Positions 77 through 53,321 of a stretch of DNA of 53,321 nucleotides are shown here, piece by piece. The stretch's first letter is position 1; each line of letters starts with the position of its first letter. The DNA lies in the IMG/VR virus record IMGVR_UViG_3300035183_001064, positions 1-53,321 of that record; one strand, written 5' to 3'. Both the position numbers and the translations under genes were made by a program. The DNA comes from a virus. Lineage: Duplodnaviria; Caudoviricetes. The notes under the pieces were generated by a model, which was given only the letters and a program-made list of their open reading frames with translations, did no database searches and had not been told where the DNA came from.

Positions 77-412
77 TCGCGAAAGTTAAACTTTTTGTAA
101 CTTTTTGCAAAACTTTCGCGACACACACGCGTTAGCGTGTCGTCCAGGGAAAAAAATCTGGACGTTAAGCGATACAGATAGCAGTTGTCTCTGAGCCCCA
201 ACCAGAGACAACAAGAGCGGAAAAACTCTAGGGGATGCTTGCAGCCCTGACCACAAGTACGCTCCGTAAGACGAGCCGAACGTGCACGAGCTAACGCTTG
301 CTATCGAGGAGTAGGCCAGAACCAAGCCCGCTTGGTGACACAAGTCCCCCAGGGAGGACTCATCCCGAGTCTCGCACCAAGCCGCCTTGGACACGCTAAC
401 CTGTAGCCTACT
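77..412 (+). ncRNA. Putative large structured non-coding RNA (unknown family), allele 1
   Basis: Multiple helices (141-147/158-164, 177-183/299-305, 184-193/203-212, 261-264/273-276, 310-316/406-412) keep pairing through compensatory changes in the second copy, while loops stay conserved. Confidence 0.8.
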
Positions 413-8161: not shown

Positions 8162-8519
8162 TTTGGCAAGCAGAAATGGGGTGTATGGGGGCGCTATGGC
8201 GGCATCCAGAAGGTGGAAAGGGCGAAAAACCGGAACCCAGCGCCTGGTGCGATGGGTGGCGGCGATACGCCCGCAGCGCGCCACGCGGAGGGCGGGCGTC
8301 GCCGCCCGCACCCCATTTTTGGGTGTGACCGCCCACCCATTTTTCTTATTGGGCGGTGGGCGGGCGTTTGGCGCGCAAAGCAGGCCAGAGGGCCAAAATG
8401 AGAGGCTATAGTCCGTCCCGGACAGGCGAAGCGGTTGCGTTGCTGGCTTCGGTTCGTTGACCGGGCGGGTTGAAGAACATAAAACGGGCGAATCGCCCTA
8501 CAGAGCAAAGGAGAGTGCC

Positions 8520-13097: not shown

Positions 13098-14771
13098 ATG
13101 CCTGTACATGTACCAAACGAGATACGACCATTCGCACCCGTCGTGGTTATTGGGGAATCGCCCGGAGAGTGGGAGATTATGCGAGGCGCGCCCTTCGTTG
13201 GCCCGGCGGGATCACTCCTTGAACAGTTTTACAAAAGTGCGGGGCTGACCAGGGAGGATATATCGTTTTTGAATCTTGTTCCGATGGAGCTGCATGGTTC
13301 GGCGCTGCAAGAAGCGGCCCGATCGGCGGAAATGCAAAAAGAGCTGCACCGCAGTTTACAGCGGTGCAAGGGCGCCCGTGTGATCGTGCTGTGTGGAGAT
13401 GTTCCTTTGCGGGTGCTGTTGAACATGCAGGGTCACGAAGGCATTACGGCGTGGCGGGGAACCATCTTTGCCCCCGCTTTATACAACCAGAAATTGCAGA
13501 AGTTGTGTCCCGTGCAGTCCGGCTTGCTGGCGGTGCTCCCTGTCTACCATCCGGCGTACACGCTGCGAATGCCGCGCACGGCGGCTGCGCAGTTTCGGGA
13601 CTGGTCTGTTGTGGCTCAGATTCTGAAGACGGGGCGTGCGCCAGAACCGCCACAGCGGAGGCATATTACGTATCCGTCCCGAGCAGAAGTGGAGTGGTTT
13701 ATGGATTTTGTCCGCTCGTTTCCGGTCAGTACGCCTCTAGCGTTTGATATTGAAACGATTCCTTCCCTGGGCCGCATTGTGTGCATTGGGTTTGCCGTGC
13801 GCACGACGGAATCGTTGGTGCTGGACTGGAGCGTGAAATGGCAGCGGGAGGCGGCGAGGGCCTTGTTGCAGTTGCCCAATCCTAAGCTCGGGCAGAATGG
13901 GCACTACGATTTGTTTTATTTGTATACGGATGAGCATCCTACGCCTGTACGCAATTATTGGTGGGACACGATGTATTTGCACCACCAGCTTCATACAACG
14001 GAGCCGCATTCCCTGGCGTACCTTGCGAGCATGTACACGTACACGCCGTATTACAAGCATGAGGGTCGGGCCAGTGGCCGGGGTATTGGGGACTTGAATG
14101 TGAAACTGGCGGAATATTGCGGGCTGGATTGCTGCGTGCAGGTGGAAGTGTTCAATGCGTTGCACGCGGAGCTTGTGGCGGCGGGGCCGCAAGCCCTGCG
14201 GTTTCACAAGGAGCATTATCAGGAGATGTATGCGCCCCTGTTGGATGTATCGCTTGCAGGATTGCGGGTAGACTCCGCCTTTTTGGGTAATACCGGGGCG
14301 CAAATGGAAAAATCGCTGGCGGCGCTGCGTGCGGAAATTGAAAAGGACGCGCCGGTGTTTGGCAAAAACAGCATTTCCAACGAAAAGTTGCGGACGTGGC
14401 TCTACACCACCCACGGCATGCCGAAGGAGTGGGGCAAAGAAAGCGAAAAAACGGGCGACAAGAATCTCAGTGTGAGTGAAGCCACATTGCGGCGGCATAT
14501 GCTGCGGGATACGAAGAAAGCGCAGAGGCTGGCCCCGGTGTTGGAGCGCATTTTGAAGTTTCGGGAGTTGCATACGTTGTCGCGCTTTTTCGTGAAAAAG
14601 GATCTGATTGATCCTGATGGGTACGTGCGGGCGCAATATTCGTTGAATACGGAAGCTGGACGCTGCTCATCGAAAGCAAATCCCCGTTTGCGGGGGCGCA
14701 ATTTACAAAACATTCCGCCAGAAGTCCGCCCCGGTTTTGTGCCGGATGTGGAGATTCGGCGGGGTGTGTGA
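13098..14771 (+). CDS. polA: Family A DNA polymerase, N-terminal part: UDG-like domain + 3'-5' exonuclease + thumb/first palm segment
   Basis: GESPG..E..RGAPFVG and YHPAY (family-4 UDG); FDIET, QNGHYD, YCGLD (Exo I-III); TEAGRCSS, NLQNIP..VR..FVPD. Confidence 0.9.
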   Translation: MPVHVPNEIRPFAPVVVIGESPGEWEIMRGAPFVGPAGSLLEQFYKSAGLTREDISFLNLVPMELHGSALQEAARSAEMQKELHRSLQRCKGARVIVLCGDVPLRVLLNMQGHEGITAWRGTIFAPALYNQKLQKLCPVQSGLLAVLPVYHPAYTLRMPRTAAAQFRDWSVVAQILKTGRAPEPPQRRHITYPSRAEVEWFMDFVRSFPVSTPLAFDIETIPSLGRIVCIGFAVRTTESLVLDWSVKWQREAARALLQLPNPKLGQNGHYDLFYLYTDEHPTPVRNYWWDTMYLHHQLHTTEPHSLAYLASMYTYTPYYKHEGRASGRGIGDLNVKLAEYCGLDCCVQVEVFNALHAELVAAGPQALRFHKEHYQEMYAPLLDVSLAGLRVDSAFLGNTGAQMEKSLAALRAEIEKDAPVFGKNSISNEKLRTWLYTTHGMPKEWGKESEKTGDKNLSVSEATLRRHMLRDTKKAQRLAPVLERILKFRELHTLSRFFVKKDLIDPDGYVRAQYSLNTEAGRCSSKANPRLRGRNLQNIPPEVRPGFVPDVEIRRGV

Positions 14772-15070
14772 AATGGGGGGAACAAGAGATGACGGTGGAA
14801 GAAACGGCAGTGTTTTTTGGCATGTTGCACCGGGATGCCAGCGCCCCGTGGCCGTATAATTGGCGGGAAGCGCCAGTGCGCTATGTTATTCCGGAAGAGC
14901 AGGAGTATGATGGGGAGGGGCGGCCCTGTGGGCCGATGCCGCAATACCGCCTTGTTGGGTTGTGGGCGTTCGATGAGGCCACCCAAACAGTGCAGGTGGC
15001 GCTGCGTCGCGTTGGGGCCGAGCCGGAGCCTGAGCCGCACCAGCAGGAGGGTGTTGCCGTGGCGGCATAG
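14768..15070 (+). CDS. Hypothetical protein inserted between the two polymerase halves
   Basis: GTGA overlap with the polymerase N-half; no HNH/LAGLIDADG/intein motif seen. Confidence 0.6.
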   Translation: MKWGEQEMTVEETAVFFGMLHRDASAPWPYNWREAPVRYVIPEEQEYDGEGRPCGPMPQYRLVGLWAFDEATQTVQVALRRVGAEPEPEPHQQEGVAVAA

Positions 15071-15094: not shown

Positions 15095-15952
15095 ATGAAA
15101 ACGGTATTTCTAAATATGGACTTGAGCCAGGCAGAGCACCGGGTGGTGGCCTTGCTGAGCGGCGATGAGACGTTTATGCAGGAGGCGTTTCGCCCCCTTG
15201 AAGGCGGCATTGATACGCATAAAGAAACGGCTGCCCTGATTTTTGAGGTGCCATATGACCAGGTGAATGCGGAGCAGCGATATGTGGCGAAAAAGGTGGT
15301 CCATGGCTCTGAACGCCTGATGGGCGCACGAAAATTGGCGTCTACCATGCGGAAGGATGGATACAATATCAAGGAGCACCAGGCGCAACGGTATCTGATT
15401 CAATTGCTCAAAAAGAAACCGGGCCTTATGATGTACATTCGGCGCGTCAAGCGTGCGATTCATGAAACGCGGACCCTCACGAATCCTTTTGGGCGGCGCA
15501 TTTATTTTGAGTGGGATCGTTTGGACGATGCGCTGTATCGGAAGGCAATGAGTTTTTTGCCCCAGTCTACGGTGGCGGATATTGTGAATGTTCTGTTTTG
15601 GAAGCGCCTGTATAAGTGGTTTGCGGAGAATGGATACGGGCGCGTCAATCAGCAAGGGCATGATTCCCTGCTTATGAGCGTGCAAATCGTGCGCGTGTAC
15701 GAGACCATGCAATATATTGCGGAGGAGCTGGCTCCCGCGCAGGCAAAAATCAAGTACCGGCTGCCAGATACAGGGGAATATCTACCGCCCATGATTATTC
15801 CTGTGGAGTTTTCCGTGGGGTGCAATTGGGGAGCTTTGACCTTGAAGTATACGGCGCTGCCCACAAAAAAGCAGTGCACACAAGACTTGCGGGCGCTGCT
15901 TCAGGCGGCGCGTGGAGCTGGTGGCAAGGCACATTCATTTGGGGGCAAGTAG
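15095..15952 (+). CDS. polA: Family A DNA polymerase, C-terminal palm/fingers part
   Basis: Motif A DLSQAE, motif B RYVAKKVVHG, NPFGRR, PQSTVAD, motif C QGHDSL. Confidence 0.9.
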   Translation: MKTVFLNMDLSQAEHRVVALLSGDETFMQEAFRPLEGGIDTHKETAALIFEVPYDQVNAEQRYVAKKVVHGSERLMGARKLASTMRKDGYNIKEHQAQRYLIQLLKKKPGLMMYIRRVKRAIHETRTLTNPFGRRIYFEWDRLDDALYRKAMSFLPQSTVADIVNVLFWKRLYKWFAENGYGRVNQQGHDSLLMSVQIVRVYETMQYIAEELAPAQAKIKYRLPDTGEYLPPMIIPVEFSVGCNWGALTLKYTALPTKKQCTQDLRALLQAARGAGGKAHSFGGK

Positions 15953-16104
15953 CCAGCAGACGGGCAATCAGGCTGGGGCCGCCGTCAAACGGCTCGCGCG
16001 CTTGCTGCTGCAAATGCTTGCGGATCCCTGGCGGCAAGGTGCGAATCTCCGATAGCCTTTGGGGGACGGCATCCTTCTGGCCTGTTCACGGGCGGGGCCT
16101 GGCG

Positions 16105-19100
16105 TCAGGGCTGGGACAGGCCTTTTTGTAGGGTGCGGGAAAGTCCGCGTTGTTGCAGACGGGGGAGTGCTGGTCGCCTTGGCGCGCTGAGGGGGGGACG
16201 GGCAATGGGACCATCCAGCGGGCTGGCCCCGTACAATTGCACCATAAGGGTGTCGAGGACAGGAAACAGGCGACGAGCCGCTCTGTTGCGCTTCTCGTAT
16301 TCTCCTTGCGCCCAGTAGGCCAGAATGGCCCCGAGGCGGTCCAATTGGGACCAGGCGGGGGGCAAATGGCCGATAGCAAACTCGCGGCCCAATTGGGCGG
16401 TGCGGTCCCGCTTGAGAGAGCTCATGACATCCTGGGCGATTTCACCTTGCATTCCGAGGAGGCCGCTCATAAAAATGCTTTGCGCCAGTAAATCCATATA
16501 CCCCTGATCGCGACGATCCCGTTGGTGGATCGTGTCTTTAATGTAATCGTTCAGGGCCATTGTGGAGGTAAGGCCGAATACCAGGCGGGTGATAGGCTTC
16601 CAGTTGCCTCGTCGCGCCTGTTGCGCCATCAGGCTTGCGAGCGTGCCCAATGAGCGGACAATGCTGGTAAAGGCAAAGACCGCGCGCAAGGCCGGATGCG
16701 TCATTGGGCGTCTTGTATCCACAGCCAGGCTGTACATGGCGTTGGACCGCGATATAAACACGCGGGCGGCCCAGGCGCGATCTTCTTCGGTCAGGCCCGT
16801 GTTCAGCACACGGTTTACATGCTCTGGACTCCAGTGTAGAAAATCCGCCAGGTCGGCCAGCATTTGAGGCTGTTTGTTTTTTGCTGCTGCCAGCGCCTCA
16901 TCAAGGGCGTCATTGACGGCAATGGCCCCGAGCTTGTTGATGTCCCGGTTAATGGCGTCTACGCCTGTCACCTTTGTCACAACCTGGCCGCTTTGACGAG
17001 CCAATTGGCGCGCGGGGTGCGCCTCAAGCACGGCGCGAATGCCGGTTTGTGCACCTTTCGCGTACTGCCGTTGCGAAAGGGGGATTGTTGCGGATGGTCC
17101 CAGCAGCCCTTCGAGGTAGCCTTGTTTGAGCCACAGGCCAAACTTGTCGCCCATTTGCAATATTTCGTCTATTTGATCCTTGCGAACGCCTTGCAAAAGG
17201 CCCAGGCGGGCCGCATGGATGTCCTTCATGATGCCGAATGCTTTGCTCAATCCCCGAAGGGCTGCCGCAGGAACCCACCCGGCGAGCGCGTTGGGTATGG
17301 CGCTCTCAGTAAGCAGCCCGCTATTGAGCAGATCAACAAACCAGTCGCCTTTTTTCAGAAATCGGGCAGCCGCATCGTCGTATTCAACGCCTTGGAGCAA
17401 CTGTACGGTCGATTTAAATTGCTTGCTGGCGACCTCCCAGTTCGCGCCTGCGCGGTCGATGGTGAGGGCGTGCAATTTGTCAAAAAAATCTTGTGTGTTT
17501 GGGCCTCCTACCATGGCTGCGCCAATGCGACGGGCGGCCATCCGCACGTATTGGCGGGGCACGTTCAAACCGTCTACATCGAGCACCTGGACGCGCTTGC
17601 CATTGACCACGACCGATTCCGGAAGTTGCAACTGGCGCTCTCGTTCAAGCGGCCCGTAGTGCCGGGTCGTAAGCTCGTCATAAAACAAATCGTTCAGCTT
17701 TTGCTCGATGGTCCATGCGTCTTTTTCGGCCACGTTTGAGGCTTTCAAAATGGCTTCGCGAAGCGCAGGGTTGGCGTTTTTCGAGATGAGCGCCTGGCGC
17801 GCCGCTGGCGTCAGTTTCTGGGTAAAATACTGTGGGTCATAGTTGGTGTCGAGACGCCCCGGACCGCGAGCCATTGCATGGACATCGTTCATAACGTCTT
17901 TGTAGACGCCCATGTAGACGCGCAAATTGGGCATGTTGTCTGGTATTGCGGTAGTGCCGCGGACAAGCCCCCGCCCGTTGTGGCGGAGAAAAGACAGCTC
18001 GGCGGGGGTGAGGTACTGGGCGGCATTGGTCAGGGCGGTGTCCCATTTTTGTGCAAGCAGAAATTGGTTCATGTCAATTTCTACAAGCGGATTGACAACT
18101 TCCTTGGGAAGCGTGCCCACCTTTGTGATGCCCCGCAGCGTAGCCCACGCGATGGCTGCGCGATCTTCCAGCTCAGCAAGGGTGCGGCCTGATGGCCCAA
18201 ATGGCCGGGTCTCTGGGCTCAGACGGCCTTTCAGGCGGGTAAGGGCGTCGCTAATATACGCGCTCATGTCGCTGATGATTGTGGTGCTGCCGGTTTCGTC
18301 CCCAAACACTTTTGCAACGCTCAGCGGGGTATCTTGCAGCGCGTTGAATACCCGTTTCAGCACGAGATTTGTTTTTTCTCCGCGCACGGATTGTTGGGCC
18401 AGAAAGTCGGCTAACTTTCGCGTGTCCCTGATTTCCGAGGGGAGGGTGTTTGCGGGCCCGCCAGTCAGACCGTAAATCTCCAGGTTGTCTGGGTGGATGG
18501 GCAGCCCGTGTTCCAGCGCGGCCTGTACGCCGTCACGATGGGCCATAAACGCCTTGTTGCTGGCGCGCGTCAGCATGGCGCGGCCCCCGCGCGTCATATT
18601 GGCGCTCATTAAGGAATTGAGGCGAGCCATGCGCTCCGCGCGAATATACTCGTCGAGCGGCACCTGGGCCAGCAGGGCTTTGGGGGGCGCACCCAGATCC
18701 TTCGCTTGTGCGGCGCTATCTGCAAGGGCCATTGTGGTTGGCCCCTCTTTCAGGGCTTGCCCAACAGGAATGACCTCTTCGCTCGGCCCCAGCAGTTGCG
18801 AAGGTTTGTGTGGCGGAAGGGCGCTGAGTTGCACCCGGCCCGTTGTGGGGTTAATGGGGCCTTCAGCCGAAGCGCGGGCTATGGCGCGTTCTGCGGCCAG
18901 CGTGGACGGGCCTTGGGGCGGCGTAGGCGCCATGGCGCGTCGTGCTCGGAGAAAGGCAGTGGCCAGCGCCTCGTCCGGTAAATCGCCGACTTTGGTTAGT
19001 TTGGTGGGGTCGCTGCTCAGGCCGTAGGGGGCGTCAGGGCCGCCCAGGGCTTTCGCCATGGTCAGGCGCTCTGTCGCCGTGAGAGGGGTCTCTTGGGTGC

Positions 19101-21015
19101 GGCCAATAACACGCTGCGCCGCCTCAATCGTGACCGCGTCTTCAGGAGTAGCGCCCCGGGTGCCGGTTGGGGCCGGTGCAGTACGACCGCTGAGGCCCTG
19201 CAAGTATTCTTCTGCGGCTTTGCGCCCTTGAGATTGCAGAATAGCCTGCACGTCCCACAAGGTGTCTGCATCGTGGGCAAAGTCCGGGCTGTCCGGGTAG
19301 TATTGCCTGTAGAGATCCCGCGCGCTATTGCGGTAGGCTCGCGCAACGGCGGCGGACACGCTGCTGGGCTGCGGCTGCGCACTGGGTGGGGGCGCGCTGG
19401 GCGGCAAGTCCTTCCACTTCCTTTGGTCCTGCGCGGCGGGCTGCGGTTGACTGGTTTCCGGCGGGCGCTGCTCCAACGCGGCCTGTGGCGTCGGTTCGGC
19501 GGCCCCGGAGGCCTGGGGCGCAGCCCCGGATGGTCCCTTGCCCTGCATGGCTGCGCGCTCCTCGATATATCGCCGAAGGGCGCTGGCCTTGTCTATATCT
19601 GTCGGTGCGATGGCAGAGCCGTAGGTGCGGCTTGCTACGGCTGCCTCGTCATTAAGACTGCGCTGCTCTCTTTGTTGTTGGAGGAGCGCCTGGGTTTCCG
19701 CCTCAATGCGTTGTGCATTGGTTTGTGCTCGGGGAGCCCCAATCTTTGGATCTTGTTCCATTGTGGCTGCGCGCTCTTCAATATACTGCTGAAGGGTGCG
19801 GGCCTTGTCCATATCCGTTGATGCGATGGTAGAACCGTAGGTGCGTCTTGCGGCTGCCGCTTCGTCATTGAGACTGCGTTGCTCGCTCTGTTGCTGTAGA
19901 TGTGCTTCGTAGCCCGCCCTGGCTTCCTCTGCAATGCGTTGTGCATTGGGCTGTCCTTGGGCCCCACCCTTTTGGCCCTTGCCTGGCGTTGCTGCGAGCT
20001 CATCGATATACTGCTTAAGGGCGTAGGCCTTGCGCATATCCGTCAATGCTACGGCAGGGCCGTAGGTGTGGTTTGTTACTGCCGCCATCTCGTCATTGAG
20101 CTTGCGTTGCTCGCGCTGTTGTTGGAGGAGCGCCTGGGTTTCCGCCTCAATGCGTTGTGCATTGGTTTGTGCTCGGAACCCCCTCTGTGGCTCCTCTTCC
20201 ATCGTTGCGGCGCGCTCCTCTATATATCGCTGAAGGGCGCGGGCCTTGTCTATATTTGTCGATATGGCAGGAACGCCGTAGGTGTGCCTTGCTTCCGCGT
20301 TAGCTTCCAATTGGCGCTGTTCGCTTTGGCGTTGCAGATATTCTTCGTGGCGCGCCCTGGCCTCCTCTGCAATGCGCCGTGCATTTTCGGCATTCTCTGC
20401 ATCGATTTCCGCTTGTATTCGCGCCGATCGTTGCGCTTGCCGTTCGGCGTTGAGCGCGGCTCGCTGCGCCTCCCGCTGCGTTTTCAAGGCCTGACGCTGC
20501 TTGCCTCTCACAATATAGCCGCCGAGTCCGCCCGTAGCGGCAGAGAGCGCCACGCCAGGCCCCATGTCGGAGAGCGGTACGCCCTCACTGGCCTGGTACA
20601 AAGCGTTTTCTGCTGCCGCAGTAAGCGCGCCTTTTGCAACAGCGTACATTTTGGACGCCGCCGGTCCGGCAGGGCCAATGGTAGCGCCCCCCATCGCAAT
20701 GGCGGTGCCAAGAAGGTTTCTCTTTTCCCGCTGCTGTGTGGCAAGTTCAATTTCTTGGGCCACCTGCTCGCCAATACCAGCACCAGCAATAAGGCCGGGA
20801 ACGCCCGCAAGAACGCTACCGACCAGGGGTCCGGCCAGGCGGGCGGCTGTGGGCGACCATTTTTGCACGGTGGTAAGCCGAGGCTTCGGTGCTGGTGCGG
20901 GCGGTCCTTGCGGCTCTAGAGCGCGAAGGGTTTCAAGAATGGTTTCTTCCGTGTCATTATCGCCAAACTCGATATACGCGCCCGGCTCATAGGGGTGCTC
21001 AACGTACTTCGGCAT
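16105..21015 (-). CDS. Large internal virion/ejection protein (1636 aa)
   Basis: Last of three large Ala/Gly/Gln-rich genes after the tail module; four internal ~72-76 aa repeats. Confidence 0.75.
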   Translation of the reverse strand: MPKYVEHPYEPGAYIEFGDNDTEETILETLRALEPQGPPAPAPKPRLTTVQKWSPTAARLAGPLVGSVLAGVPGLIAGAGIGEQVAQEIELATQQREKRNLLGTAIAMGGATIGPAGPAASKMYAVAKGALTAAAENALYQASEGVPLSDMGPGVALSAATGGLGGYIVRGKQRQALKTQREAQRAALNAERQAQRSARIQAEIDAENAENARRIAEEARARHEEYLQRQSEQRQLEANAEARHTYGVPAISTNIDKARALQRYIEERAATMEEEPQRGFRAQTNAQRIEAETQALLQQQREQRKLNDEMAAVTNHTYGPAVALTDMRKAYALKQYIDELAATPGKGQKGGAQGQPNAQRIAEEARAGYEAHLQQQSEQRSLNDEAAAARRTYGSTIASTDMDKARTLQQYIEERAATMEQDPKIGAPRAQTNAQRIEAETQALLQQQREQRSLNDEAAVASRTYGSAIAPTDIDKASALRRYIEERAAMQGKGPSGAAPQASGAAEPTPQAALEQRPPETSQPQPAAQDQRKWKDLPPSAPPPSAQPQPSSVSAAVARAYRNSARDLYRQYYPDSPDFAHDADTLWDVQAILQSQGRKAAEEYLQGLSGRTAPAPTGTRGATPEDAVTIEAAQRVIGRTQETPLTATERLTMAKALGGPDAPYGLSSDPTKLTKVGDLPDEALATAFLRARRAMAPTPPQGPSTLAAERAIARASAEGPINPTTGRVQLSALPPHKPSQLLGPSEEVIPVGQALKEGPTTMALADSAAQAKDLGAPPKALLAQVPLDEYIRAERMARLNSLMSANMTRGGRAMLTRASNKAFMAHRDGVQAALEHGLPIHPDNLEIYGLTGGPANTLPSEIRDTRKLADFLAQQSVRGEKTNLVLKRVFNALQDTPLSVAKVFGDETGSTTIISDMSAYISDALTRLKGRLSPETRPFGPSGRTLAELEDRAAIAWATLRGITKVGTLPKEVVNPLVEIDMNQFLLAQKWDTALTNAAQYLTPAELSFLRHNGRGLVRGTTAIPDNMPNLRVYMGVYKDVMNDVHAMARGPGRLDTNYDPQYFTQKLTPAARQALISKNANPALREAILKASNVAEKDAWTIEQKLNDLFYDELTTRHYGPLERERQLQLPESVVVNGKRVQVLDVDGLNVPRQYVRMAARRIGAAMVGGPNTQDFFDKLHALTIDRAGANWEVASKQFKSTVQLLQGVEYDDAAARFLKKGDWFVDLLNSGLLTESAIPNALAGWVPAAALRGLSKAFGIMKDIHAARLGLLQGVRKDQIDEILQMGDKFGLWLKQGYLEGLLGPSATIPLSQRQYAKGAQTGIRAVLEAHPARQLARQSGQVVTKVTGVDAINRDINKLGAIAVNDALDEALAAAKNKQPQMLADLADFLHWSPEHVNRVLNTGLTEEDRAWAARVFISRSNAMYSLAVDTRRPMTHPALRAVFAFTSIVRSLGTLASLMAQQARRGNWKPITRLVFGLTSTMALNDYIKDTIHQRDRRDQGYMDLLAQSIFMSGLLGMQGEIAQDVMSSLKRDRTAQLGREFAIGHLPPAWSQLDRLGAILAYWAQGEYEKRNRAARRLFPVLDTLMVQLYGASPLDGPIARPPLSAPRRPALPRLQQRGLSRTLQKGLSQP

Positions 21016-48399: not shown

Positions 48400-49692
48400 T
48401 CAGACGTGGCATTGAGCCGCCCCCTGAGTCGCTTCGACGGGTTCCTGCTTCCGACCGCCAACGCGGTTCGATCCACAGGCCATCTGGGCTGACACAGGCA
48501 GACCACCTGCCAGCATCCCAACCGAAGCGTCGGTTGTGTCCCGCCCTTCGTCTCGCCATATTTGCATCCCGCGAGAAAGGATGTTGATTGCGCCGACCAC
48601 ATCGGCGTTGTCCTCGAACCCACATGCCACGCACACGAACCTGGCTTGCGTTCGGCGGTTGTCCGCCGAAATATGACCGCAGCACGGGCAGGTGCGGCTG
48701 GTGTTGTGAGGCGGCACCACAATGAGATGGCCGCCTTTCCACGCCAGCTTGTACGCCAGTTGGCAGCGAAACTCGTACCAGCCTTGATCAAGGATAGACT
48801 TGTTCAGGCCGGACTTGGCCCGAACGTTGCTTCCCGGCGCATCTACTGTACCTGCCGCCGACCGGGACATATTCCGCACTCGCAAGTCCTCGATGCAAAC
48901 GATCGCGTGGTTTTTGCTGATCGCGGTCGAGGTCTTGTGCAGAAAGTCGCGGCGGACATTGGCAATGCGGGAATGAATGCGCTGGACGCGGGCTTTCGCC
49001 TTCTTCCAGTTGTTACTGAGCTTGACTTTGCGGCTCATGGCCTGCTGAGCTTTGCGCAAGGCCACCTCATGCCGCTTGAAGCTGTTGATGGGGGCGTAGA
49101 ACGCGCCGTCCGAGAGCGTCGCGAACCGGGCAATGCCCATATCAATACCCACTGCCCCACCCTTCGGGATCGGCTGAGCAACCTCTCGTTTGGTCTGAAT
49201 GGCAACAAACCACTTGCCACCGCTCAGGCTGACGGTGACGTTGCGCAGATCGCCCAGCACTTTGCGGCTGTTGCGATAGCGCAGCCAACCAAGCTTCGGC
49301 AGAAAAATGCGGTTGTTGGCCTGATCGAGCTTGATTGCCTTCGGGTTTGGATAACGGAAGCTGTCCGACCGGCCCTTCTTCTTGAAACGCGGAAAGCCAG
49401 CACGTTTGGAGAAGAAGTTGGTGTAGGCCCGCTCCAAATCTCTGAGCGCCTGTTGCTGCGAATGAGCGGGAGCATCGGCCAGCCAAACCGTTTCCACGCT
49501 ATTGCGCCACCCAGTAAGCAGCTTGCACAGCCCGGCATAACCCAGTTTCTTCTCGCCTTGCTCGTAGCGATCCTTCTGCAACGCCAACGCCTTGTTGTAG
49601 ACAAACCGACACGAGCCAGCGAAGCGGTGCATCTGCCGCTCCTGCTGGCCGTTTGGCATGAGTTTGAATCTAAAGGCCTGGAACCGCTGCAT
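48400..49692 (-). CDS. tnpB: TnpB RNA-guided endonuclease
   Basis: HTH N-terminus (CRFVYN), GFPRFK, RuvC D (GIDMG), E (IEDL), D (NADVVGAIN), zinc ribbon CPCC/CVAC all intact. Confidence 0.95.
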   Translation of the reverse strand: MQRFQAFRFKLMPNGQQERQMHRFAGSCRFVYNKALALQKDRYEQGEKKLGYAGLCKLLTGWRNSVETVWLADAPAHSQQQALRDLERAYTNFFSKRAGFPRFKKKGRSDSFRYPNPKAIKLDQANNRIFLPKLGWLRYRNSRKVLGDLRNVTVSLSGGKWFVAIQTKREVAQPIPKGGAVGIDMGIARFATLSDGAFYAPINSFKRHEVALRKAQQAMSRKVKLSNNWKKAKARVQRIHSRIANVRRDFLHKTSTAISKNHAIVCIEDLRVRNMSRSAAGTVDAPGSNVRAKSGLNKSILDQGWYEFRCQLAYKLAWKGGHLIVVPPHNTSRTCPCCGHISADNRRTQARFVCVACGFEDNADVVGAINILSRGMQIWRDEGRDTTDASVGMLAGGLPVSAQMACGSNRVGGRKQEPVEATQGAAQCHV

Positions 49693-50746: not shown

Positions 50747-51029
50747 GTCCGGCGATCAGCGCCGCCGTCTACGGCGCGTGCATCGGCGGGGTGCGAGGCA
50801 TTTCGTGATGATCATATGGCGCATGGCATGGCGCGCGGTGCGCGGTGCGCGGCATGCGGCGTGGTGCGGTGCATGGCGTGCGGGGCAGGGCAGGGCAGGG
50901 ATTATCGGCTTGATTTTGTTGAAATACCTGTGGCCGTTTGGAGGGGGGATCTTTTGTGCGACCCCTCCCGCGCCGGAGTCCTCCCGGAACGGATCCCGCT
51001 CCGCCCCCGGGTTGGGGCCCCCCTACAAA

Positions 51030-51306
51030 TCTCACTCACAGTGAGTGAGAAATGGGCGGAGGACGCGGCTCACGGAACCATCCCCTACAATGGGCGAGAC
51101 ATTCCCCATAACAGGCGATACATCACTCACAGGGTGTGAGATATCACTAACAGGGTGTGAGATATCACTCACAGGGTGTGCAATATCACTCGCAGTGAGT
51201 GAGCTATCACACACAGTGTGTGGAATATCACTCACAGTGTGCATAGTATCACTGCCAGTGTGGGAGCATCACTCACCGTGAATAGCCATCACGCACAGTG
51301 TGTGAG
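51030..51306. repeat. 21-bp palindromic operator/iteron-like array
   Basis: Perfect palindrome TCTCACTCAC-A-GTGAGTGAGA at 51030-51050; ATCAC-led units at 51122, 51143, 51164, 51185, 51206, 51227, 51248, 51268, 51288. Confidence 0.9.
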
Positions 51307-51515
51307 GCTCTGGTTGGGGTGCGGGCCCGGTTCGGGGAGGGTTCCGGGGAGGGAGCGGGCCCGGAGCGGGGCCGGGCGAAGAAAGGGCGAAGGGAAGGAG
51401 ACAATATCACATTTTGTTTGTCAAGGTGTTTTTGTAAACACGTTGTAAGTGCGCGAAATCATTGATGTTTTGGGGTACTTGCGTCACAATTTGTTCGGAG
51501 CTACAAACATGCCCA

Positions 51516-51848
51516 TCGCGAAAGTTAAACTTTTTGTAACTTTTTGCAAAACTTTCGCGACACACAAACGTGTCGCCCGGGGAAAGAAATCCGGGCGTAA
51601 AGCGATACAACCAGTAGCTGCTGCTAAGCCCCAAACTGGCAGCAGCAAAGGCGGAAGAACCCTAAGGGATATTATCCCTGACCATAAGTAAGCCCCGTAA
51701 GACGGGCTGAACGTGTACGGGCTAACGTCTACTGGTGAGGCGTGGGCCAGAACCAAGCCCGCTTGGTGACACAAGTCCCCCAGGGAGGACTCATCCCGAG
51801 TCTCGCACCAAGCCGCCTTGGATGTGAACCTGTAGCCCACTATGTCTC
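51516..51848 (+). ncRNA. Putative structured ncRNA, allele 2
   Basis: Covarying helices relative to 77-412. Confidence 0.8.
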
Positions 51849-51898
51849 AAAAAGGCTGTTAATTTCGTCAACAAGTGAAAAACAACCAGGAGGAAAAC

Positions 51899-52486
51899 AT
51901 GGCAGCAAAAAAAGCCAAAGAAGGCTTCTGCATCTCTTTCGTTAGCGAGAAAGTCTCGCTAACAGCAGCAGAAATCGACAGGATCAAAGCTTGGAAATGG
52001 TACGACAATGATCCGTACCATGGCCAATGCTTATTGTCTCAATGTACGCCGCATTTAGGCGTACTGCTGGAGCAAATTACAAACGCTTATCGTGCCAGTG
52101 AGCCGATAAGTGTTAAAAGGGATAGATGGGGTTCCGAGAAGGAGATTATTACTCCGTCCGAAGCAATAAACCGCTTCGGCGGATTTTCCCTAAGGTACAG
52201 CAGATTAACTTCGCTTCCAGGTTCGCCAACGCCGGAAGCGGTTTTAAAAAGCAAAAATCCGGCGTGCCAGCACATATGGCGCGCCTTAAAAGAGCTCGAG
52301 TTTTTGCGCCCTGATTTAATCAGAGTGACTAAAGGCGGCGTTGTGCGCCTTAAAGGCCACGATCCCAATTTTGGCACTAAAACAAGTGTTGGTAGCCGCT
52401 CTAAGGCTGCTATAGATCCAGCAGCCTTAGACAGTATACTTTCGCAGTATACGCGGGGAGCCGCTTCAGGGAAGCGGAACCGCTAG
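51899..52486 (+). CDS. Homolog of 473-1063
   Basis: AGGAGG RBS; high amino-acid similarity. Confidence 0.85.
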   Translation: MAAKKAKEGFCISFVSEKVSLTAAEIDRIKAWKWYDNDPYHGQCLLSQCTPHLGVLLEQITNAYRASEPISVKRDRWGSEKEIITPSEAINRFGGFSLRYSRLTSLPGSPTPEAVLKSKNPACQHIWRALKELEFLRPDLIRVTKGGVVRLKGHDPNFGTKTSVGSRSKAAIDPAALDSILSQYTRGAASGKRNR

Positions 52487-52514
52487 TGTACCTACCCATA
52501 GGGGGGGAGGAAAA

Positions 52515-52703
52515 ATGATGACGCTCACGGCAAGAGTTTTACACTATGCTGCGAAGGGGTGGGGCTTGCGTGAGGCTATCACGCAGGCTCAAAAAGATGC
52601 TGACGAAGATGCGCGCACGATAGCGCGCACAAAGCGACTACTGGCATGTTACAAATACACGCCAGTAGTGCAGAGCCGATTACGGCACCAAAGAGACGAA
52701 TAA
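52515..52703 (+). CDS. Homolog of 1060-1245
   Basis: GGAGG RBS; near-identical protein. Confidence 0.8.
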   Translation: MMTLTARVLHYAAKGWGLREAITQAQKDADEDARTIARTKRLLACYKYTPVVQSRLRHQRDE

Positions 52704-52791
52704 GCATTCGTTTTGTGTTTGGTGCCATTCCGTGGCAAGTCAACAATTTAACAAGCTCCTGCCGGAAAAAGGCAGGAGCAAGGAGGAAGGT

Positions 52792-53205
52792 ATGTTTTCC
52801 GTAAAGTTTACGTGTGTCCAAGCAAATCACCACATTATTTGTATCGAGGAACCCCCAGCGGGGCTTAGCGCCTTGGATGCAGCTAGAGCCCAATTGGGTT
52901 CGGACATTCGGACTGTAGCGCCTCCTTTGGGGTTCTACAAGTATGAGATTGCTTGCTCTTTAACGGAAGAGCAAGCAAGACGGGCAACAAACCAATTTGG
53001 CAAGCAATGGAGTACTTGCGTTCGCGTTCTGCGTGGGGCTTTTAACAATTGCGTCATTCATACGTGGAATAGACTTCAGTCTAATCCCACGTGTGCAACG
53101 CTAGACTATAATATTGATCGAGATACAATTGTGGAAGCCTGGCTAGATGCCGGGGCTCCCAATTTGTGGGTTCCTCCACAAGAGGAACCCACGGAAGCGG
53201 AATAG
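52792..53205 (+). CDS. Paralog family A, homolog of 1332-1745
   Basis: AAGGAGG RBS; high similarity. Confidence 0.9.
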   Translation: MFSVKFTCVQANHHIICIEEPPAGLSALDAARAQLGSDIRTVAPPLGFYKYEIACSLTEEQARRATNQFGKQWSTCVRVLRGAFNNCVIHTWNRLQSNPTCATLDYNIDRDTIVEAWLDAGAPNLWVPPQEEPTEAE

Positions 53206-53225
53206 GGTATAGGCAGCCTACGATG

Positions 53226-53321
53226 AAGGCCAGTTTAGCGAGGCTCTTGCGAAACTGGCCTTTTCTGTTTTGTGCAATGGAGGCCAGTTTAGCGAGGCTC
53301 TTGCGAAACTGGCCTTTTCTG
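53226..53321 (+). terminator. Two tandem 54-bp hairpin/U-tract units
   Basis: AGGCCAGTTTAGCGAGGCTCTTGCGAAACTGGCCTTTTCTG twice. Confidence 0.65.

Follow-up and report, generated by a model that had tools for sequence, protein, structure and literature searches.

A probable three-domain leader RNA in an uncultured tailed phage

Near the left end of the virus record IMGVR_UViG_3300035183_001064 (Caudoviricetes), a single IMG/VR entry of 53,321 bp that was analyzed whole and is called the window here, lies a segment of about 300 nt that very probably encodes a genuine structured RNA. We believe that this + strand RNA has a three-domain fold, fits no described family and serves as 5' leader to the immediate-early genes, the first transcription unit of a tailed phage from microbial mats that has not been cultured and whose genome is put at ~51.4 kb; the probability of this reading is roughly 0.9. 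An earlier note, made from the letters alone, had proposed a large multi-domain leader RNA in this position after comparing positions 77-412 with a diverged copy near the right end of the record. Such a structured RNA is borne out by compensatory changes between the two versions, together with one-sided changes that are tolerated only as G-U pairs on the + strand. As to its mechanism, we tentatively favor a cis-acting role in processive antitermination.

In the consensus model, domain 1 (116-172) is a three-way junction built from P1 (116-119/169-172), P1a (120-124/137-141) and P1b (142-148/157-163); the P1a hairpin differs in length between the versions by a 6-nt indel, and the pairs of P1 and P1a are invariant. 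Domain 2 (177-305) is closed by a long-range helix of 6-8 bp (177-182/300-305) and contains a 10-bp hairpin (184-193/203-212) with the conserved C-rich loop AGCCCCAA, followed by a multiloop with helices at 215-219/295-299, 226-228/288-290, 231-234/245-248, 252-254/282-284 and 261-264/273-276. The multiloop can be paired in more than one way: GCTC has a choice of two GAGC segments, and GCTC and both candidate partners have all changed together between the versions. Between two of the helices is a conserved internal loop, AAGUA (255-259) opposite GAAC (278-281), that resembles what we take to be the loop E / sarcin-ricin motif; GUAA, part of the 8-nt loop CGUAAGAC, is presumably GNRA-like. Domain 3 (311-411) is a long interrupted helix, with an outer part at 311-319/401-411 and an inner part at 322-337/375-390, capped by a three-way junction with two terminal hairpins (345-348/352-355 and 356-361/367-372).

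Covariation between two versions of the RNA

The fold is supported by a comparison of the left version (116-412) with the right one (51555-51840), which are 81% identical by blastn within the record. An alignment of 110-425 with 51551-51855 (MAFFT and RNAalifold) has 318 columns, 71 of which differ, 15 of these by gaps. The RNAalifold consensus contains 84 pairs in 14 helices, and standard pairs fill 168/168 cells across both versions, nine of them with G-U. Between these two sequences, which are the only source of the covariation and from which the structure was itself partly derived, 15 pairs have changed on both sides and five on one side, the five are all kept through G-U, and no pair is lost. 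Twelve of the 15 double changes fall in domain 2, two in P1b and one in the outer helix of domain 3.

The stem exchanges that the earlier note had listed hold up individually. P1b changes from GTCCAGG/TCTGGAC to GCCCGGG/TCCGGGC (two double changes), and the long-range helix closing domain 2 from GATAGC/GCTATC to ACCAGT/ACTGGT, with four double changes across ~120 nt. The adjacent hairpin, GTTGTCTCTG/CAGAGACAAC in the left version, becomes GCTGCTGCTA/TGGCAGCAGC through five double changes and one change to G-U. Smaller exchanges of the same kind turn GCTC/GAGC (261-264/273-276) into GCCC/GGGC and GTAGGC/GCCTAC (311-316/406-411) into GTGGGC/GCCCAC. The conserved loop strings that had been singled out are every one identical in both versions, and the nested domain described as invariant is indeed so, with 311-391 identical except at a single stem position, 313.

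This pattern is far from what controls produce. Sliding the 3' partners by 1-3 columns lowers pairing to 31-41% and double changes to 0-1, and 0/500 column shuffles reach the observed values of either. When the 45 substitutions of the variable block were placed at random in 20,000 trials, they yielded on average 1.8 compensatory pairs (maximum 9) and 9.4 broken ones, whereas the block as observed has 14 compensatory pairs and none broken. Substitutions in this block occupy 34/99 paired columns versus 11/81 unpaired ones (Fisher p = 0.0017): the stems drift while the loops and junctions stay held. The indels between the versions measure 6, 1, 3, 2 and 1 nt, and those of 6 and 3 nt sit at hairpin tips, altering hairpin length and leaving the stems intact. 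The comparison bears neither way on P1, P1a or the inner domain 3 helices (322-390), which lie in blocks of 100% identity.

Both the G-U pairs and the folding scores favor the + strand. The five one-sided changes pair only as G-U on that strand and would give A-C mismatches on its complement. Measured against shuffles, each version alone gives z-scores of -4.67 and -5.21 on the + strand and of -3.25 and -2.39 on the - strand. A protein-coding origin of the conservation finds no support. Neither strand has a reading frame that stays in phase from one version to the other, given the sizes of the indels; the + strand frames differ, and the minus-strand open frames at 86-616 and 51484-51840 are put out of phase by the 1-nt indel in the 194-202 loop. 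The ORFs overlapping the element have no Pfam match.

Two probable strain alleles in one record

The record is listed as linear and, by the CheckV estimate, as 54% complete, and its first and last 1,880 bases (1-1880 and 51442-53321) form a diverged direct repeat with a mean column identity of 89%. The repeat is a mosaic in which blocks without any difference (100% identity) alternate with others of, judged by eye, ~65% identity; positions 3-127 show no differences at all. Its offset corresponds to a unit of 51,441 bp. True phage terminal repeats are regenerated from one copy and are hence identical, whereas the ends here have diverged, and for this reason the sequence is most likely that of a circular or terminally redundant genome of ~51.4 kb that was assembled once round and then into the path of a second strain. 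The layout of contigs from two microbial-mat metagenome runs on positions 1-1900 fits this wrap-around: 1-127 is common to the variants and deeper, and coverage beyond it splits into variant contigs. One mat contig of 1,672 nt extends 1,281 nt upstream of window position 1. If the wrap-around reading is right, the label of a linear, 54% complete genome would understate it.

At least three variants of the RNA region are present among the mat contigs, the left version of the window included. A variant contig of 131 nt carries 19 differences across 98-230, further ones carry 26 differences over 245-385 and 13 over 251-323, and a third variant, from metagenome run X2, departs from the window sequence from 323 onward, in domain 3. 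Given the diverged ends and the contig layout, the two repeat copies of the earlier note probably represent a single locus in two strains and not a duplication within one genome. The comparison loses no force by this, and is the more natural for it. In the second allele, domains 1, 2 and 3 lie at 51555-51605, 51610-51736 and 51742-51840 (+), followed on the same strand by the ORF1 allele (51899-52486) and by a duplicated terminator from ~53224 to the end of the contig.

Relationship to described RNA families

The statement in the earlier note that the RNA belongs to no recognized family withstands comparison with Rfam 15, whose 4227 models (among them riboswitches, ribozymes, group I and II introns, RNase P, SRP, 6S, omega RNAs and GOLLD, ROOL, OLE and raiA) gave no match at gathering score on either strand of the whole window. 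In E-value mode each version of the RNA returned noise only (E 2-8, with 11-16 bits against thresholds of 33-50), and ARAGORN found no tRNA or tmRNA genes in the window. Several specific classes were also considered and rejected. No cognate gene lies adjacent in the right orientation for a TnpB/IscB omega RNA, an IS110 bridge RNA or a retron msr-msd: the sole TnpB gene (48400-49692, minus) is ~1.9 kb from the RNA, on the opposite strand and with its 3' end facing away, and ORF1, ORF2 and ORF3, the first genes downstream, contain no RuvC, DEDD or reverse transcriptase domains. An intron is rejected in that no group I or II model matches, and a type III antitoxin RNA was likewise discarded. As for a CsrA/RsmA sponge, the ~8 GGA motifs counted by eye in 330 nt are near a rough chance estimate of ~6.

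Relatives were sought in several collections. Distant-mode blastn with 60-470 found no match among 50,697 GenBank phage records, exact 26-mers of domain 3 do not occur in the viral and metagenome contig collections, and neither gapped loop-motif patterns nor a 30-mer of a divergent mat variant occurs in the viral contigs. The same loop pattern has five matches in the genome contig collection, none with the flanking stem, and these look like chance (our own expectation was ~10). ORF1, used as a handle, found nothing in viral, metagenome or genome contigs, nor by tblastn against the phages. A DUF932 protein query returned nothing from the viral contigs and distant jumbo and other phages in GenBank (<37% identity); TerL returned distant phages only (<28% identity). 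One related contig, L003, is 94% identical and stops short of the RNA region. As far as seen, the RNA is confined, among the collections scanned, to one rare phage lineage, with no homologue found outside it. A literature keyword search, which cannot establish absence, found no paper describing the element. It may already be among the 10,006 candidate structured RNAs that a published screen predicts in IMG/VR and other viral sequences (PMC10690425).

Genomic context

The proposal that the element heads the early transcript fits the gene map, in which it lies between non-coding repeats and a + strand gene block of ~16 kb. Upstream of the RNA are ~750 bp of non-coding, repeat-rich sequence. They hold a palindromic array at 51026-51306, with ~9-10 units of consensus ATCACTCACAGTGTGAGAGAT at an exact 21-bp spacing, which is a candidate replication origin, packaging site, partition site or other protein-binding array. 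GC-rich inverted repeats (50995-51010 and 51344-51359) bracket it, and a G-rich repeat block on the + strand (51306-51400) follows it directly; this block and a similar low-complexity one at 50800-50900 are made of units of GCGCGGT, GGGCA and GGTTCCGGGGAG. Two leftward sigma-70-like sites (51438-51411 and 50746-50718, - strand) have a 12-nt repeat and the -10 hexamer, CAAAAT, in common, and one would drive transcription of the C-rich strand through the array.

Closer to the RNA, a weak sigma-70-like promoter candidate on the + strand (23-51, TTGATG-17 nt-CACAAT), picked by eye with 8/12 consensus positions and below the threshold of our scan, would, if used, start transcription near 58. Between it and the fold is a perfect 11-bp inverted repeat (77-87/110-120, + strand) that encloses two CTTTTTGYAA direct repeats (91-110). 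This repeat could serve at the DNA level, as an operator around the promoter, or else in the RNA, as a 5' hairpin competing with P1. If it is transcribed, fold prediction has the hairpin forming and competing with P1; if it is an operator, transcription may alternatively start near 121.

An A-rich linker of ~60 nt (413-472, + strand) joins the RNA to ORF1 and carries the Shine-Dalgarno (SD) sequence AGGAGG at 461-466. Between the RNA and ORF1 (412-473, + strand) there is no terminator. In four fold contexts the SD has a mean unpaired probability of 0.41-0.57, so it is not strongly sequestered, and the only predicted anti-SD pairing is weak and rich in G-U. With neither a terminator nor strong SD sequestration before ORF1, no riboswitch-type expression platform is apparent.

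ORF1 (473-1063, +), the first gene after the RNA, encodes an orphan of 196 aa with conserved Cys/His positions and no Pfam, PHROG or NCBIfam family. Its relatives number four proteins in 5.8 billion, two of them from the window, and form a single 50% cluster in 1.84 billion representatives; the two outside the window come from a 965-bp contig (P0003) and an 18,220-bp contig (P0004). The AlphaFold model is poor (pLDDT 40), and the ESM Atlas places ORF1 in unnamed clusters only. ORF2 (1060-1245, +; 61 aa) and ORF3 (1332-1745, +; 137 aa), which ends the first transcription unit, match no family in the same three databases, and ORF3 has no relatives outside the window. These flanking ORFs diverge fast between strains (68-78% identity). 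Just 5' of the ORF3 ribosome-binding site, 1297-1319 forms a perfect 9-bp GC-rich hairpin (-19.4 kcal/mol) that lacks a U tract and is kept in both alleles except for a 2-nt loop indel. A 10-bp hairpin within ORF3 (1492-1515; allele 52952-52975) carries GCTCTTTAA, which resembles what we take to be the boxA core. A boxA assignment was rejected: the string occurs once per ORF3 allele, giving two matches in the window, and 4/100 shuffles gave at least two.

The unit is followed, 1.4 kb downstream of the RNA, by a strong intrinsic terminator, t1 (1779-1815, +, with a U tract to 1826), in which a 17-bp interrupted hairpin of -23.5 to -25.6 kcal/mol precedes TTTTCTGTTTTG and whose stem covaries between the alleles. 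The t1 hairpin (1776-1860/53222-53321) is tandemly duplicated in the right allele; the left one keeps a truncated second copy, and the contig ends inside the duplication. No promoter was seen between t1 and the next gene, which starts at 1881. A second terminator pair lies at 8287-8338 and the last terminator at 16079-16122, where the two gene blocks converge; genes in the same orientation extend for ~14 kb beyond t1. After ORF1-3 the + strand genes include an exonuclease, a Sak4-like protein, a repair exonuclease and a split family A DNA polymerase (13269-14771 and 15095-15952), whose halves are separated by a 100-aa ORF of no family (14768-15070) and whose first ORF has a weak UDG-like match at its N-terminal end. 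The leftward block contains TnpB, a primase/helicase-like protein, the large terminase, a portal or adaptor-like protein and tail genes. The TnpB-type gene has OrfB_IS605, Cas12f1-like TNB and HTH domains, and a 1,636-aa ORF at the end of this block (16105-21015, -) matches nothing in PHROG or NCBIfam. The scan covered 42 different ORFs, most of which match nothing, and we found no RNA polymerase, sigma factor or known antiterminator among them.

A possible role in antitermination and its alternatives

The RNA (116-411) lies upstream of the same-strand terminators at 1779-1815, 8287-8338 and 16079-16122, which matches the placement of processive antiterminator RNAs. We therefore suspect that it is a cis-acting processive antitermination RNA, perhaps with ORF1 as a processivity partner. 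In such a scheme the folded nascent leader would act in cis on the RNA polymerase that transcribed it, possibly aided by the ORF1 protein; the elongation complex would then pass t1 and, after it, the terminator at 8287-8338, and the read-through would permit expression of the replication genes that fill the following 14 kb in the same orientation. The conserved loops and junctions might provide the contact surfaces, with the freely covarying stems serving as scaffolding. This mechanism is chosen because mobile elements are reported to use large cis-acting RNAs in this position (PMC8191782, PMC11658703). Its probability, as distinct from that of the structured RNA itself, is about 0.3, because only position, size and context tie the RNA to known antiterminators.

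Several points weigh against the proposal. No likeness in sequence or structure to put, EAR, conAn2 or canT is in hand: the Rfam comparison was negative, and conAn2 and canT were compared by description. The order of the parts also differs, in that conAn2 lies after its protein gene and the RNA here precedes ORF1. Transcription of the leader, its start site and read-through of the terminator are all predictions, and the covariation is based on two sequences. A sigma-70-like site (TTGACC-17-TAAAAC at 8457-8485, found by eye) follows the second terminator, and t1 may simply bound an immediate-early unit, with later promoters being of a type invisible to a consensus scan.

A doubtful alternative is that the leader is a cis-acting sensor, riboswitch-like or autoregulatory, that binds a metabolite, an ion, a host protein or the ORF1 protein and tunes the translation or stability of the ORF1-3 message, with the lambda N and T4 gene 32 leaders as regulatory analogues. 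A large multi-junction fold in which loops and junctions are conserved while stems drift is the usual pattern of a ligand- or protein-binding RNA, and the gene that immediately follows this one has a strong SD; if the upstream repeat is transcribed, P1 and the 77-120 hairpin would be mutually exclusive. Between the fold and ORF1 there is neither an intrinsic terminator nor a conserved anti-SD pairing, the SD is about half unpaired in every model, the downstream genes are orphans with no metabolic link and no known riboswitch family in Rfam matches. Assignment as a riboswitch was rejected, since no expression platform is apparent between the fold and ORF1.

It is less likely that the RNA is cut from the early transcript and works in trans, as a decoy or sponge for a host defense or RNA-binding factor or as the scaffold of a ribonucleoprotein with ORF1. 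It would be the first sequence expressed from a genome end beside a repeat region, and in T7-like phages host-takeover and anti-defense functions are common at such first-expressed ends. The fast divergence of the flanking ORFs would suit this role, as would a compact fold that closes cleanly at 411, ahead of the unstructured A-rich linker. Set against these features, the 3' end of the RNA has no terminator or known processing signal, and Rfam reveals no likeness to known trans-acting RNAs.

A processing or stability module, in which the domain 3 helix would be an RNase III-type site and the other folds would shield the 5' end, strikes us as improbable. Precedents exist in T7 R0.3 and the lambda N leader; domain 3, which lies ~60 nt ahead of the start codon, stacks 25 predicted bp (9 + 16) with internal loops, and the replication genes are T7-like (family A DNA polymerase, exonuclease and primase/helicase-like protein). 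For such a task, however, domains 1 and 2, with their conserved loops and loop-E-like motif, are far too elaborate. More improbable still is a link to replication, whether through a transcript that primes or activates an origin at the 21-bp array, as in ColE1 RNA II priming or T7-type transcriptional activation, or through pairing that acts in single-stranded DNA. The iteron-like array of palindromes and the G-rich block do lie 250-530 bp upstream with divergent promoter-like sites between, and the minus strand also folds better than shuffles. Transcription of the RNA would nevertheless be directed away from the array, the five one-sided changes are kept only as + strand G-U and become A-C mismatches on the other strand, and conserved loops and multi-way junctions are unexpected in a primer or a DNA hairpin.

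The absence of any functional element, with chance complementarity, an overlapping coding gene or an assembly artifact behind the pattern, is very improbable and already largely refuted: only two sequences were compared, minus-strand frames are open at 86-616 and 51484-51840 and the contig ends are a chimeric overlap, but the 14 compensatory and 0 broken pairs stand against simulated means of 1.8 (maximum 9) and 9.4 and slid controls of 0-1, the minus-strand frame loses phase at a 1-nt indel and its ORFs have no Pfam match, and both versions and further variants are present as contigs in two sequencing runs. The remaining probability belongs to some explanation not listed here.

Comparison with known systems

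The element, an orphan of which a few alleles from one habitat are known, is well supported as a structure; the function proposed for it is our interpretation of its setting. Its kind is precedented, being the structured 5' leader of a phage early operon, whereas its fold matches no precedent. The lambda N leader (nutL and an RNase III hairpin) and the T7 early leader (R0.3) are also long non-coding leaders of a first transcript that has a closing terminator. They are simple hairpins, however, and the leader described here has three multi-helix domains with conserved junctions. Like GOLLD, ROOL, OLE and raiA, some of which are phage-borne, it is a large RNA supported by covariation and with no assigned biochemistry. 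Those RNAs are widespread stand-alone genes of ~200-800 nt, often near tRNAs and all in Rfam; the phage element has no Rfam match, is a 5' leader and occurs, as far as seen, in one rare lineage. Few large RNAs are backed by covariation and yet lack a family, and new biochemistry has come from several of them. In the present case the RNA is the first sequence that a phage of T7-like organization would express, with a strong terminator and 14 kb of replication genes behind it. There is also a cautionary side to how it came to light, in that the revealing "repeat" is a probable assembly wrap-around of two strains, which supplied a two-allele comparison for free.

Among the known antiterminator RNAs, put is ~70 nt and EAR of Bacillus ~120 nt, and both have simple two-stem or compact folds; they are far smaller and simpler than the phage leader, which matches nothing in Rfam. 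As is proposed for the leader, put of HK022 and EAR are nascent RNAs that modify RNA polymerase in cis, and put lies just after early phage promoters (PMC9378689). conAn2 of pLS20, described as a 260-600 bp RNA region that works with the small, poorly conserved ConAn1 protein and is much larger than put and EAR (PMC8191782), comes closer. Both conAn2 and the ~300-nt phage leader are large structured RNAs found early in a long mobile-element operon whose genes share one direction. In both, intrinsic terminators follow downstream, the adjacent gene encodes a small protein that is poorly conserved, and a central region is enclosed by a long-range inverted repeat. conAn2 differs in following conAn1 and in belonging to plasmids of Gram-positive hosts, and antitermination by the phage RNA is our own proposal. 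Membership in the pLS20-type conAn system was rejected: upstream are non-coding repeats, and the adjacent gene is the downstream ORF1, which has no recognizable family. Without detectable family relatives or domains, ORF1 is set beside ConAn1 by description only.

canT of Tn916 is described as an orientation-specific cis-acting RNA of 341-452 nt with a complex multi-stem fold that carries transcription past several terminators into mobile-element genes (PMC11658703). The same source has it needing no element-encoded protein and overlapping a spurious opposite-strand ORF, and its likeness to the phage leader is again one of description.

We regard it as possible, though doubtful, that the phage RNA is the founding member of a new class of phage RNAs that reprogram the host transcription machinery, alone or with ORF1, or else of a new class of viral ribozymes or riboswitches. 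For a ribozyme or riboswitch, the conserved junctions, with the loop-E-like motif, the GNRA-like loop and the 10-nt C-rich loop, would form the catalytic or ligand-binding core, and a sensor or decoy would give phages a new way to couple early expression to host state. Should the RNA instead reprogram transcription, it would represent a third, structurally unrelated route to RNA-mediated processive antitermination. As an antiterminator, it would extend the very short list of put, EAR, conAn2 and canT to an environmental phage and offer a fold both compact and well-defined for structural work.

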